Shown: positions 5,929 to 39,519 of the stretch, one piece after another
Layout: each line of letters begins with the position of its first letter
Numbering within the stretch: position 1 is the stretch's first letter
Assembly (NCBI GenBank): GCA_018661705.1
Contig: JABJHR010000001.1
Coordinates: 47,042-111,041 of the forward strand
Length of the DNA: 64,000 nt
Direction: 5' to 3'
From: Candidatus Woesearchaeota archaeon
GTDB taxonomy: Archaea; Nanobdellota; Nanobdellia; Woesearchaeales; DSVV01
Made by a program: the position numbers and the translations under genes
The notes under the pieces: generated by a model
Database searches by the model: none
Seen by the model: the letters and a program-made list of their open reading frames with translations, nothing else
What the model was told of the DNA's origin: nothing

Positions 5929-6270
5929 TTATTCCTCAGATAAGATTTTTTCAATTTTAATTGCTATTTCTTTTGATTCACTTACTTGGTTTTTCATCTT
6001 GTTGATGAGTTTGTTTAATTGTCTTATTGTGCCCATGATTAGAATATCACTTTTCTCAATACTGCAATTAACACAGCCTTTGTTAACAGCAACATCTCCA
6101 CCAATAGAAAGCATTTCTTGTTTTAAGATGTTTGCAATTGCATTTCTAACATCTTTTATTTTTATGATTCTAAATTTAGATTTATCAAGCATATAATTGG
6201 TTGCCCATTCATCTACTCCAATGTCTTGCATCTCTTGTTTAACATCTTTTTCTGGGATTAGTTCTGCCAT
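5929..6270 (-). CDS. stand-alone domain resembling the N-terminal extension of long dihydropteroate synthases
   Basis: ANILKQEMLSIGGDVAV...DILIMGT..QL..LI.KMK.Q motif; no pterin-binding barrel follows. Confidence 0.65.
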   Translation of the reverse strand: MAELIPEKDVKQEMQDIGVDEWATNYMLDKSKFRIIKIKDVRNAIANILKQEMLSIGGDVAVNKGCVNCSIEKSDILIMGTIRQLNKLINKMKNQVSESKEIAIKIEKILSEE

Positions 6271-6295
6271 TTTTTATTTATATTTCTTAAAAGAT

Positions 6296-6399
6296 AGAAA
6301 AAACAACAACAACTTAGGCACAGACGGACTTTTTCTTTCAGAAAAAATCCTACTCACCTCGCTATGCTCGGTTCGCCTGGCCATGCTATTGTTTTTTCT
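6296..6399 (-). repeat. Family A three-way-junction repeat, copy 2
   Basis: Minus strand: GGCCAGGCGA-ACC GAGCATAGCGA GGT-GAGTA-GGATTTTTT..AAAAAGTCC-GTCTGTGCC. Confidence 0.9.
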
Positions 6400-6413
6400 T
6401 TATTAAAATAAAA

Positions 6414-7145
6414 TTATGCTTTTGCTTTGAAAAGTCTACTTATCAAATAGCTTTTATCGACATGTAAAATGTCTGATGGAATCTTAAATTTGCTTGTTAC
6501 TTTATGTAACACTGCATTCATTCCAAAATAACTGCCAATAATTCCCATTGCAAATAATGATCTTTCAAATACAACTACTGGCATTAATGCTAGCCATTCT
6601 GCAGGAGACATTGGGAATGTGTAAAGCCATGCAACACTCCCTATACTGTGTGCTACAAATGTTGCTCCAAAACTTTTTAAGATTAAATTATCTGAATATC
6701 TTGTTGGTAAAATTGCTACAATTATTGGAACCCACCAAAACATTGCATATAACCATGCTTCTCTACCAACTGGGTGCATAATGAATGCAATCATTGCAAT
6801 TAATGGGATTACTACACCAAATATTTTTGCTAACATTGGTTTGCCAAATAATTTTTTTCTTGAACCAAAATAAATTGCAGCAAATATCATTGGAGTTAAT
6901 CTAACTATATTAACTAAAGTAAATGCTTTTCCAGCAATTATATAATCAGTACCATGTGCAATTAAAACTGATATTGCACCAACAATCGGACCTAAAAATG
7001 CACCTGCGATTGGTCCAAAGAATTGAAATAATGTGAAAAATTGGTTATCTGCACCAACTAATGGTGAAAAATTAACTCTTCTTCCTATAAATACTAATGC
7101 TGCGAATAATACTAAGAATATTACATGTTTTTTAGTTATTTTCAT
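6414..7145 (-). CDS. integral membrane protein, ECF S-component-like
   Basis: About 7 hydrophobic helices; FFGPIAGAFLGPIVGAIS resembles the S-component 'G..fGp..G' motif. Confidence 0.55.
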   Translation of the reverse strand: MKITKKHVIFLVLFAALVFIGRRVNFSPLVGADNQFFTLFQFFGPIAGAFLGPIVGAISVLIAHGTDYIIAGKAFTLVNIVRLTPMIFAAIYFGSRKKLFGKPMLAKIFGVVIPLIAMIAFIMHPVGREAWLYAMFWWVPIIVAILPTRYSDNLILKSFGATFVAHSIGSVAWLYTFPMSPAEWLALMPVVVFERSLFAMGIIGSYFGMNAVLHKVTSKFKIPSDILHVDKSYLISRLFKAKA

Positions 7146-7243
7146 TTTTACACCCCTGATTGTTTTGAATTAGGATGGCATGGGGTTTTAAATAGTTTAT
7201 TATTGATTATTACATGATTTAAGAATATGTTGGTATTTGTTGA

Positions 7244-7432
7244 GTATATGCATAGCTCCTAACAAAGATGTTGTTGCTGCCGGTTATAGTGGCTGAAATC
7301 CCATTGAATAATTTATTTAAATCATGTTATGTAGTATATTATTGGATTTCAGTTCCAAATATCATAAACCTATAATGCCACTATAACAAATTTGAGGCAG
7401 TAACAACATCATAAAAGGAGCTATGCACATAC
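7244..7432. mobile_element. MITE-like element (189 bp, 17-bp terminal inverted repeats, 8-bp flanking direct repeat)
   Basis: GTATATGCATAGCTCCT (7244-7260) / AGGAGCTATGCACATAC (7416-7432), flanked by TTTGTTGA at 7236-7243 and 7433-7440; nested internal stems. Confidence 0.7.
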
Positions 7433-7484
7433 TTTGTTGAATAATATTTATATAACCTAATGGATTACTTAATTTTAATTTAAA

Positions 7485-13222: not shown

Positions 13223-13311
13223 AAGAATGGGGATGTTTGGGGGGTTTAAATAGGTTTTGGAAAGGGAGAAATTTAATAATCTTGTTTGATGAAATAATAA
13301 TGTTATATGAT

Positions 13312-13405
13312 GAAAAAACAACAACATCGGCACAGACGGACTTTTTCTCTTTTTGTTCGAAAAAATCCTACTCAGCTTCGCTTTGCCTGGCCATGTTGTT
13401 TTTTC
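13312..13405 (-). repeat. Family A three-way-junction repeat, copy 3
   Basis: Minus strand: GGCCAGGCAA-AGC GAA GCT-GAGTA-GGATTTTTT..AAAAAGTCC-GTCTGTGCC. Confidence 0.9.
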
Positions 13406-13441
13406 TATAATATGGTAATAATCTTATTATTTTAAGAAAAA

Positions 13442-35819: not shown

Positions 35820-35847
35820 TTGTTTCTTTTTGTTGGATTTTACAAAG

Positions 35848-35941
35848 AAAAAAATAACAACAATATAGGCACAGACGCATTTTTCCCTACGGAAAAAATA
35901 CTACTCGGCTACGCCTCGCCTGGCCATGCTGTTATTTTTTT
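35848..35941 (-). repeat. Family A three-way-junction repeat, copy 5
   Basis: Minus strand: GGCCAGGCGA-GGC GTA GCC-GAGTA-GTATTTTTTCC GTAG GGAAAAATGC-GTCTGTGCC. Confidence 0.9.
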
Positions 35942-35978
35942 AGTAAATAATTTAAACTAGCAGATAAATTAAATATGC

Positions 35979-37625: not shown

Positions 37626-37704
37626 TTGGTAAGATTTCTTTGTAAGGTTTATAAACGTTTGTGTTGTTTTGGTTTGATTTTGACGTGGTTTTATAGATGA
37701 TTGT

Positions 37705-37823
37705 GTAAAAAATAACGACAACAACGGCACAGACGGACTAAAGTCCTACTCGGCTGGTGCTTTGGAGTTCGTAGAACTCTCTTTCTTCGCACCACCTCGC
37801 CTGGCCATGTTGTTATTTTTTAC
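37705..37823 (-). repeat. Family A three-way-junction repeat, copy 6 (extended P2 arm)
   Basis: Minus strand: GGCCAGGCGA-GGTGGTGC..GAGTTC TAC GAACTC..GCACCAGCC-GAGTA-GGACT TT AGTCC-GTCTGTGCC. Confidence 0.9.
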
Positions 37824-37890
37824 TTCTGCGTTATATACCAAAGAATACTTTTTCGTAACATATATAAACCTGTACAGTTTAAAGAATCTC

Positions 37891-38406
37891 ATGAATTGGA
37901 CAAAACTATTATTTGTTTTAATTGTAGTATTACTTTATGTACCAATGGTTTTCTTAGGTGCAAATGTTTTCTTTCCTGAATATACTACTGGAAGTGGTGA
38001 TTCATATTATAGGGGTTATGAAAAATGTAACTTTCCAAAAGCAATTCCTTCAGAAGAATATGAAACTGAATTAACAGAAGATTATCAAGATTGTATTGAT
38101 GCATCACAAGAAGATGAAAAAGAATGGAAAGAAATTAAGAATGCATACAATGGAAATAAATTTGTATTCATTACTTTGTTTAATTTGATTATATTACTTT
38201 TAGCGTTGTTTGTAACTTTGTTTAATAGTAGTGTTATAATGGGTTTATTTTTAGGTGCAACAGTTTCAACATTCTCAGCAACAATGGCTTACTTTGAAAC
38301 TAATAGTAAATTAGGATTTGGTGTTTTAGTTGTGATTTTTTTCCTAGCATTGTTTTTCATTAGTAAAAAGAAAGATAGTTTTATGGATTGGAAGACTAAT
38401 AAATAA
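37891..38406 (+). CDS. membrane protein (4 TM, extracellular Cys pair)
   Basis: Hydrophobic segments; start moved to ATG 37891 because the track's extension reads through a repeat. Confidence 0.75.
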   Translation: MNWTKLLFVLIVVLLYVPMVFLGANVFFPEYTTGSGDSYYRGYEKCNFPKAIPSEEYETELTEDYQDCIDASQEDEKEWKEIKNAYNGNKFVFITLFNLIILLLALFVTLFNSSVIMGLFLGATVSTFSATMAYFETNSKLGFGVLVVIFFLALFFISKKKDSFMDWKTNK

Positions 38407-38448
38407 TTCTTTTATTCTTTAGTTTTTAACAAGGGTGGTTTCTTTATC

Positions 38449-38726
38449 TATTTGGAAATCATCATCTTGGCCGCGAATTAAATAGATTTCTTGTAGAAAT
38501 TATAACTTAAAGGAAATCTATGTCATAAAGGATTTTGTCTTGAATTGTTTAATTCACCTTAAGGCCAGGACGAAGATGATTTTATTTATTTATTTGGAAA
38601 TCATCATCTTGGCCGCGAATTAAATAGATTTCTTGTAGAAATTATAACTTAAAGGAAATCTATGTCATAAAGGGCTTTGCCTTAAATTGTTTAATTCACC
38701 TTAAGGCCAGGACGAAGATGATTTCC
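38449..38726 (+). repeat. two tandem 134-nt structured elements (period 142), candidate ncRNA
   Basis: 38449-38582 and 38591-38724 differ at only 4 positions; nested stems. Confidence 0.9.
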
Positions 38727-38730
38727 TTAA

Positions 38731-39519
38731 TTATCCAAATGTAGAAAACTTACTCATAAATATAAACTCATAATTACTGCCATTAACAAATGCTTTCTTG
38801 TCTGTGATGGAAAATGCATATGTTTCTGGATCTAATGGGAGAATTTGAACCTCTAAATCATATTCTGTTGTAAGGCTTTGTAAACATTCTACACAAATGG
38901 TTGTCATGTCTTGAGTTTGCATTGGAACGTATTCTACTAATAAATCATGTATTGTGCCTAATCTGCAGGGCATGTCTAATTGAAATTTCTTTAATACTTT
39001 AGAAGCACTACCTTGGGTTATTGTAACTAGCATTTCTGTTTCTACTAAAACATTATCTCTTGCAATAATTATTTCTGTATCTGGTTCATCCATAAAAACT
39101 TCTATTCCTTGTTCTGCAAATGGTTGTAATCCAAATAATTTTGCATTTAACGCAGCATCAATTGAATAACCTAACTGTTTTTCTAAATCATTTCTCGGAA
39201 TTAAATAAGCATCATCATAATAAAACAAAAATGGTATTGAGGAAATAGGATCTGTATTATCAGGAAGCTCATAATAACCAGCTTGTACTCCATTATTAAT
39301 CAAGGCTTCAACAGTTGCTTCTTCTAACGCACTATTAACAAAACTTGTAACACTAACACCTAATGCATCTAATTGTTGAGTAGATTTAGTTGTTACCTTT
39401 ACATCAACTCCACTAGACAAAGAATTAAAATACCATAAGAAAACAACAAAGATTAACACAACAAGACCTAGTATCATGAATAAGGTAATTTGTGATTTCT
39501 TCCCTCTTTTATTTATCAT
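38731..39519 (-). CDS. class III signal-peptide (archaeal pilin-like) protein
   Basis: KRGKKS|QITLFMILGLVVLI N-terminus. Confidence 0.7.
   Translation of the reverse strand: MINKRGKKSQITLFMILGLVVLIFVVFLWYFNSLSSGVDVKVTTKSTQQLDALGVSVTSFVNSALEEATVEALINNGVQAGYYELPDNTDPISSIPFLFYYDDAYLIPRNDLEKQLGYSIDAALNAKLFGLQPFAEQGIEVFMDEPDTEIIIARDNVLVETEMLVTITQGSASKVLKKFQLDMPCRLGTIHDLLVEYVPMQTQDMTTICVECLQSLTTEYDLEVQILPLDPETYAFSITDKKAFVNGSNYEFIFMSKFSTFG

Follow-up and report, generated by a model that had tools for sequence, protein, structure and literature searches.

A tandem pair in a woesearchaeal genome as a probable local duplication within a dispersed family of structured, MITE-like repeats

Background

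Does a short tandem duplication between two archaeal genes, with paired bases that change together, mark a functional RNA or something else? The question is raised by a locus in a 64,000-nt stretch of a Candidatus Woesearchaeota genome (hereafter the window), which also holds an archaeal RNase P RNA; the genome comprises 1.65 Mb with ~31% G+C. An earlier note, made from the letters alone, had proposed that the two copies represent a structured RNA candidate. The analysis presented here retains the conserved fold from that proposal and departs from it on the nature of the element, which is most likely a mobile repeat, its fold being compatible with single-stranded DNA as well as with RNA. Mobile repeats of this kind have precedents, as prokaryotic MITEs are described (PMC10969869, PMC2229807) as having stem-loop folds, TIRs and short direct repeats that decay with age, and a woesearchaeal genome ranks among the most MITE-dense archaea (PMC11602168).

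Results and discussion

The tandem pair and its support in independent assemblies

The locus is built much as the earlier note had described it, with two 134-nt copies between convergent genes and four differences between the copies. The period of the pair is 142 nt (38439-38580 and 38581-38722, copies 96% identical), and the 134-nt block (38449-38582 and 38591-38724) contains exactly four differences, all of them transitions, at 38532 (A in copy 1, G in copy 2), 38533 (T/C), 38538 (T/C) and 38542 (G/A), or 38674, 38675, 38680 and 38684 in the coordinates of copy 2. The four positions lie within 11 of 129 nt, a clustering with a chance probability of 0.0013 in a post hoc calculation. The folding unit is 131 nt long and is assigned to the minus strand, spanning 38454-38584 in copy 1 and 38596-38726 in copy 2, the latter starting 4 nt past the stop codon of the gene to its right. 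Copy 2 has a complete outer stem (GGAAATCATC...GATGATTTCC); copy 1 is without the terminal CC and has therefore lost the outermost two pairs. Three degenerate 15-nt direct repeats, read from the plus strand, frame the pair: the first (TTTCTTTATCTATTT) at 38439-38453, the second at the copy junction (38581-38595, 13 of 15 positions identical to the first), and a third, weaker one (38722-38736, 10 of 15 identical to the first) that overlaps the end of copy 2. The convergent flanking ORFs, which serve as context only, are a membrane protein gene at 37762-38406 (plus strand) and, at 38731-39519 (minus strand), a gene for a 262-aa protein with many paralogues; neither neighbour has a Pfam family, and so nothing marks either as a toxin gene.

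The earlier note had allowed for a mis-assembly of strain variants, which, in its plain form, was not borne out by the contigs of these runs. The junction of copy 1 and copy 2 is present in contigs of three of the four sequencing runs examined (X1, X5 and X7, from three studies, where X1 may be the source sample of this genome), and before the junction X7 has the letters of copy 1 and X5 those of copy 2. In X1, X5 and X7, the repeat is covered about two to four times as deeply as its flanks, a ratio that is not a copy number, and the population copy number refers to four of the 15 runs listed. The duplication is real, and an assembly artefact joining two strain variants is scarcely credible when both variants precede the same junction in separate studies, even though no contig covers the whole stretch of the pair and one low-depth X6 contig skips 142 nt and runs through with one copy. 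The X6 contig represents a one-copy form, which may be a true allele with one copy or a collapse made by the assembler, and no empty-site form was seen in the contigs. Relatives offered no syntenic locus for comparison.

A dispersed family visible with covariance models

Rfam contained no relevant family for the whole window at the gathering threshold or for the locus at E up to 10, nor for 20 homologue loci or 20 trimmed homologues (E up to 10), in agreement with the earlier note, which had seen no known core. BLAST of the pair against its own genome and 40 relatives gave short chance matches only, and the family is visible only with covariance models, iteration of which produced the covarying homologues that the earlier note had suggested collecting. 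A model of the two copies, applied to 150 genomes from the order, gave two full-length matches in one genome (G078) and one partial chance match; the G078 matches align with fixed spacing and have two-sided changes in 8 of 29 pairs. The second model found matches in 5 of 27 genomes of the same taxonomic family. The third, R3, with a 104-position core from 28 sequences, matched 8 of the 27 other genomes of that taxonomic family at 1-38 copies each, five of the eight having been in training and G008, G011 and G024 being new. R3 also matched 7 of 150 other genomes of the phylum, all listed in the same order and six of them new. Two chance matches (L244 and L250) and a doubtful one (L247, in G170) were dropped, and alignment A6 leaves out four near-duplicates (L235, L238, L255 and L228).

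The two copies at the locus score 72.3 (copy 1) and 73.1 bits (copy 2) with R3, in whose training set they were included. An HMM built without any sequence from this genome retrieved them as well (E 6e-11 and 2.6e-12, respectively), with no other match below E 9 and a best E of 1.5 in the reversed genome. Two more distant members reside in the same genome, both of which were missed by the genome-wide R3 search. One is a complete MITE-like copy in the window (7244-7432, minus strand), which was absent from the R3 training set and is scored by R3 at 37.3 bits (E 2.3e-6), with the TIR GTAT(A/G)TGCATAGCT and a perfect 8-bp TSD, TTTGTTGA, at 7236-7243 and 7433-7440. The other, on contig C1 (126833-127020; 27.6 bits), has the same TIR and a TSD matching at 7 of 8 positions, and this TIR also bounds copies in G001, G008 and G011. 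Tandem or close pairs of the family are found in G014, too. Exact-pattern scanning gave five matches in genomes, two of them homologues, nine matches and no homologue in metagenomes, and chance matches or none in viral contigs, where 19 loci had no model match and a further 120 were judged chance from the looseness of the pattern.

By these sequence comparisons, the pair is assigned to a family of non-coding repeats dispersed in the genomes of Woesearchaeota-type archaea. No description of the family was found in the open-access literature on Woesearchaeota or DPANN repeats, MITEs and structured RNAs; it is a new structured MITE-like family, some TIR-bearing members of which may already be included in the archaeal MITE set of PMC11602168.

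A three-armed fold conserved by covariation

All five pairings named in the earlier note are present in the plus-strand minimum-energy fold, which has z-scores of -4.0 and -5.1 for the two copies (0 of 200 shuffles as good), and the minus-strand fold is nearly as strong (z = -4.0 and -4.7). Read on the minus strand, the family anatomy consists of an outer stem of variable sequence, a GGCC-type helix with a 5-7-nt bulge, and the 10-pair helix P2, which runs directly into the hairpin P3, while a side arm bears a small apical hairpin. P2 of copy 2 (38615-38699) pairs 38690-38699 with 38615-38624 by nine Watson-Crick pairs and one U-G, unlike P2 in most relatives, which have G·A or A·G at four positions. 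The P3 hairpin of copy 2 (38625-38662) pairs 38655-38662 with 38625-38632, its loop length being free in the family, and the 27-nt side arm with the apical hairpin (38663-38689) holds all four differences between the copies.

These parts recur throughout the family. P3 has 96% of its cells paired in the 28 sequences and 278 of 288 Watson-Crick in 36 further matches, and the side arm measures 24-33 nt in 63 of 64 members. An apical hairpin of at least three Watson-Crick pairs is found in 43 of 64 members, compared with a shuffled mean of 29.6 and a maximum of 41 in 300, and the small hairpin of the pair, the pairing of which the earlier note had seen preserved between the copies, occupies this apical position. 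Each of the 18 pairs named in P2 and P3 has two-sided changes in the 28 sequences, with a covariation score of 0.53 that 0 of 500 shuffles reach and slid controls of at most 0.16, in a test where relatedness inflates the shuffle comparison and the pairs were chosen on the same sequences. The outer stem lies outside R3 and constitutes an independent check: 28 of the 36 new matches pair there beyond the 5th percentile of the null; outer stems vary between copies yet remain paired. RNAalifold, run on the first MAFFT alignment, recovered no helix but P3, because that alignment misplaced the outer stem and the side arm and because the program does not score G·A pairs. The predicted three-armed fold is conserved in the family, and the selection on such a fold suggested by the earlier note is thereby upheld.

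Strand preference and the case for a functional RNA

The plus strand, taken as functional in the earlier note, is not the one favoured by the family, in which purine-purine pairs, G-U pairs and tetraloops point to the minus strand. In the minus-strand reading, 18-20 of the 28 sequences have G·A or A·G at four columns of P2, and the same columns are Watson-Crick in this genome, in G001 and in G002, and at two of the four also in part of G014. A total of 320 cells, read on this strand, include 99 purine-purine, 14 G-U, 3 A-C and 2 pyrimidine-pyrimidine combinations, and the 36 further matches, obtained with a model that favours such a pattern, include 86, 10, 2 and 0, respectively. GNRA tetraloops number 12 on the minus strand versus 2 on the plus strand, and CUUG loops 10 versus 1. 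Contrary indications come from the UNCG loops (2 versus 4), from a first fixed-register count in which A-C exceeded G-U (23 versus 7 in P3, 8 versus 4 in the outer stem), and from the pair itself, which folds slightly better on the plus strand; the realigned core has 1 A-C versus 2 G-U in P3, and the outer stem has no strand preference by energy (16 versus 15). Taken together, these patterns suggest that the minus strand is likely the selected strand of the fold.

A core that is itself a functional RNA, such as a small ribozyme or an RT substrate, and that spreads via an RNA step with transposon ends secondary in some lineages, would agree with the G·A and A·G columns that are Watson-Crick in other lineages, with the minus-strand excess of GNRA and CUUG loops, with outer stems that are copy-specific in sequence yet paired, and with the long direct repeats of variable length around three TIR-less copies. 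We nevertheless consider it improbable that the family spreads in this manner. Tandem G·A pairs and loops of the GNRA and CUUG type are stable in single-stranded DNA too and therefore do not separate RNA from single-stranded DNA, and a folded single-stranded DNA fits the same data. Moreover, the 20 trimmed homologues have no Rfam ribozyme match at E up to 10, the 28-sequence core is without an invariant column, the UNCG loops lean the opposite way, RT is found in only two of nine carrier genomes, and the TSD length is constant (8-9 bp) in the TIR-bearing groups.

The family resembles twister-sister and other small self-cleaving ribozymes in its junction-type fold and size, and differs from them in the lack of any Rfam match. 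A word, GTGCAAGC, on the plus strand of several members presumably resembles the twister-sister loop, but it is absent from many members, including the pair, and sits on the strand disfavoured by the G·A pairs. Hammerhead, HDV-like, K-turn and bulge-helix-bulge motifs, compared by eye with their consensus, gave no fit. That the variable segments are bridge-RNA-like guides to the flanks, an idea prompted by a 12-nt AT-rich flank match at the locus, was dropped because these segments turned out to pair with each other as P2.

Genomic context and marks of mobility

The 74 ORFs adjoining the loci of the first set have no relation to one another, being housekeeping genes or genes of unknown function, and the 76 loci analysed for orientation are divergent (19), co-oriented (18), antisense (14), convergent (9) or undetermined (16) relative to their neighbours. 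The family is short, non-coding, multicopy and dispersed between genes, an ORF of at least 80 aa overlapping 9 of the 76 loci. The neighbours have no function in common and the orientations no bias, which argues against a riboswitch or a dedicated terminator. The placement of the pair in the gap between convergent genes, 4 nt past one stop codon, its strong fold and the ability of MITE transcripts to regulate adjacent mRNAs (PMC2229807) would all suit a host regulator at the locus, whether a riboswitch, an antitoxin array, or a hairpin that acts as terminator or mRNA stabilizer for the two convergent genes. Such a role is very unlikely as the primary one, considering that 19 of 76 loci are divergent, that no element was found after homologues of the left gene in other genomes, and that the locus has just one weak terminator-like site. 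A secondary, co-opted regulatory role could coexist with the mobile-repeat explanation.

The likeness to riboswitch, ribozyme or antitoxin arrays drawn in the earlier note did not hold up, since most copies are single, dispersed, in all orientations and often bounded by TIRs and TSDs, and the tandem arrangement is a local accident within a dispersed family. TIRs with 8-9-bp TSDs were detected at 21 of 67 loci outside G002, two of which (L233 and L217) are really long direct repeats, versus 6 of 250 mismatched flank pairs used as controls; the remaining 46 loci, including all of those from G016, G024, G078 and G211 in the scan, were without TIR plus TSD. In G002, there were 99 TIR matches compared with 18 for a control pattern; of 23 elements bounded by TIRs, 16 carry a TSD whose two sides agree at 7-8 of 8 positions, and model R2 matches 9 of 20 regions retrieved for this comparison. 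Copies within one genome are related, and these counts therefore overstate independence. At least three TIR types exist, beginning GTATG, GGC and GATAC. In four G142 loci (L497, L502, L506 and L517), GGC-type ends with 8-9-bp duplications enclose other structured cargo, which has no match to the family model. Since the relatives are dispersed, many with miniature-transposon ends, we regard the family as likely mobile DNA and not as a gene for a riboswitch or ribozyme.

Three TIR-less copies (L233, L217 and L203) are flanked by 14-20-nt direct repeats, longer than usual TSDs; the direct-repeat test was significant for 6 of 36 loci, a count that includes the two copies of this pair and one locus explained by an adjacent copy. 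The 15 nt duplicated at L233 comprise an overlapping stop/start with its ribosome-binding site, whereas at L203 the duplication covers the final codons of a VWA gene; the neighbouring reading frames stay intact in both cases. Other hairpin elements are nested in the P3 loop or side arm of L252, L254, L240 and L307.

The search for a mobilizing enzyme

The 74 neighbouring ORFs include no transposase, reverse transcriptase or Y1 gene. The genome of the pair has no match for Y1 and TnpB (PF01797, PF07282), IS1595, IS66 or RT families, and a TnpB or Y1 gene beside the RNA, the arrangement of an IS200/IS605 omega-RNA, was found neither in this genome nor among the neighbours. Y1 (PF01797) occurs in 13 of 27 genomes of the taxonomic family, including the carriers G001, G008 and G011, and was not found in six carriers (this genome, G002, G005, G014, G016 and G024), among them the four with the highest copy number (G002, G005, G014 and G016). 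RT is present in 8 of the 27. IS256/Mutator and ISL3 were each found in none of five carriers, and IS1595 in 5 of 401 genomes of the order, without matching ends. G002 has three IS66 fragments, one ~840 nt from a TIR, with no complete element seen, and the ORFs inward of unpaired TIRs (24 of 43 scanned) include no transposase. Overall, no autonomous element with matching ends was found for IS1595, IS256, ISL3 or IS66 in these incomplete genomes. Between a truncated TIR and an IS66 fragment in G002 (L360, C16:477-999) lie two small adjacent ORFs (91 and 81 aa) that, by eye, resemble an antitoxin-toxin pair.

These results bear on a REP/REPIN-like reading, in which an HUH (Y1) transposase would move the family in the form of folded single-stranded DNA. 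REP/REPIN elements form tandem arrays and fold as single strands, and the strand-biased hairpin fold of the family, its occurrence in every orientation, its tandem copies and the missing TSDs of most TIR-less loci would all be explained, with Y1 transposases at hand in G001, G008 and G011. That account appears quite improbable to us all the same, with Y1 not found in six carriers, the highest-copy ones included, no Y1 gene among the 74 neighbouring ORFs, and clear TIRs with 8-9-bp TSDs, which are not the mark of HUH transposition. The family is like REP/REPIN elements with RAYT in being a non-autonomous intergenic hairpin repeat; it is unlike them in having no RAYT/Y1 beside the copies examined or in high-copy genomes, in its TIRs and 8-9-bp TSDs, and in forming a three-way junction instead of an inverted REP pair.

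Likeness to other elements and to repeats of the host genome

The closest parallels are with MITEs (Correia/NEMIS, ERIC, RUP, Sulfolobus SM1-SM4 and QMITE2), which are described (PMC10969869, PMC2229807) as likewise 100-400 bp, non-coding, intergenic, multicopy and variable in copy number, with TIRs, short direct repeats and stable stem-loop folds. The family differs in that one covarying core is common to at least three unrelated-looking TIR types and to TIR-less copies, in that this core is strand-biased with G·A pairs, and in that no partner insertion sequence was found. The tandem pair differs further, having no TIR of a shared type and no clean TSD (0 of 1), only a 10-bp terminal stem and the degenerate 15-nt repeats. 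It is therefore no canonical MITE, and we place it in the family as a member that is MITE-derived or MITE-like in its workings. TwoAYGGAY (RF01731), according to a preprint (bioRxiv 10.64898/2026.09.22.753630), has two arms on a basal stem and is multicopy and intergenic, with variable copy number and frequent doublets. The family shares with it the structured, two-armed architecture on a basal stem and the multicopy intergenic occurrence, and is set apart by the lack of an Rfam match and of AYGGAY loops, by its archaeal hosts and by the head-to-tail orientation of the doublet described here.

The host genome is rich in other repeats, with 214 loci of its intergenic space, the one at 37666-37824 of the window among them, in one BLAST-linked cluster of other hairpin repeats. 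At least three other dispersed hairpin repeat families are present, for example at 37666-37824, 2172-2365, 6265-6418, 13291-13433 and 35820-35974 of the window, one family having GTAG before a short hairpin, which we take to be REP-like. An intergenic, tandemly duplicated 164-nt hairpin-rich unit on contig C12 (122583-122884; 99% identical over 138 nt) belongs to another family. No kinship of the pair with two of these repeat families (A and B) was detected by HMM, nor by R3 on the window. The side arms of six members (L217, L231, L413, L414, L419 and L432) carry a CTTTAG apical word that resembles the GACTTTAGTC hairpin of family A, and a recognition hairpin common to the two is possible from this similarity. 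As a separate observation, ARAGORN found 4 intron-less tRNA genes in this genome, and 18 when introns were allowed, in an assembly rated 92.8% complete; most of its tRNAs may carry non-canonical introns.

Origin of the pair and the role of the fold

The explanation that we favour, with a probability of roughly two in three, is that the pair is a local tandem duplication of a dispersed family member, likely a non-autonomous miniature transposable element, predicted to be three-armed on one strand. The TIR-bearing members would be moved by a cut-and-paste transposase acting in trans. The element of the tandem pair would have lost, or never had, such ends, and would likely be immobile by the cut-and-paste route. 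The pair was likely born by slippage or unequal crossover between short degenerate flanking repeats, the third 15-nt repeat (38722-38736) probably representing the microhomology for the duplication; its overlap with the end of copy 2 would fit the missing terminal CC of copy 1, provided that these repeats were the endpoints of the duplication. The copies would later have diverged only in the side arm, which among the paired parts is under the least constraint, with the hairpin kept.

The weaker step in this explanation concerns the fold. Cut-and-paste transposases work on double-stranded ends, and the MITE reading alone therefore leaves a strand-biased inner fold unexplained. Most likely, the fold is kept because the folded strand, as DNA or as a transcript, aids the spread or the tolerance of the element. 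A bolder proposal, which we advance tentatively and consider rather unlikely, is that the core, with G·A motifs specific to one strand and a side arm of fixed length, itself signals mobility: as folded RNA or single-stranded DNA it would either be catalytic or be recognized by an enzyme of the host or of a virus, would move alone with 14-20-nt duplications, and would repeatedly have been captured between different insertion-sequence ends as a portable module across DPANN transposon families.

Conclusions

As a tandem repeat, the locus is ordinary, and the point of interest is the family behind it. Structured repeats of this type have spread in streamlined DPANN genomes in which a matching transposase was not found, and they retain a covarying, strand-biased fold across differing transposon-like ends, although plain cut-and-paste transposition does not need a fold. 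For screens that look for RNA motifs, the pair is a warning that compensatory changes between two copies may stem from a mobile repeat. If the core were catalytic or a mobility signal, it would represent a new kind of module of ~105 nt.
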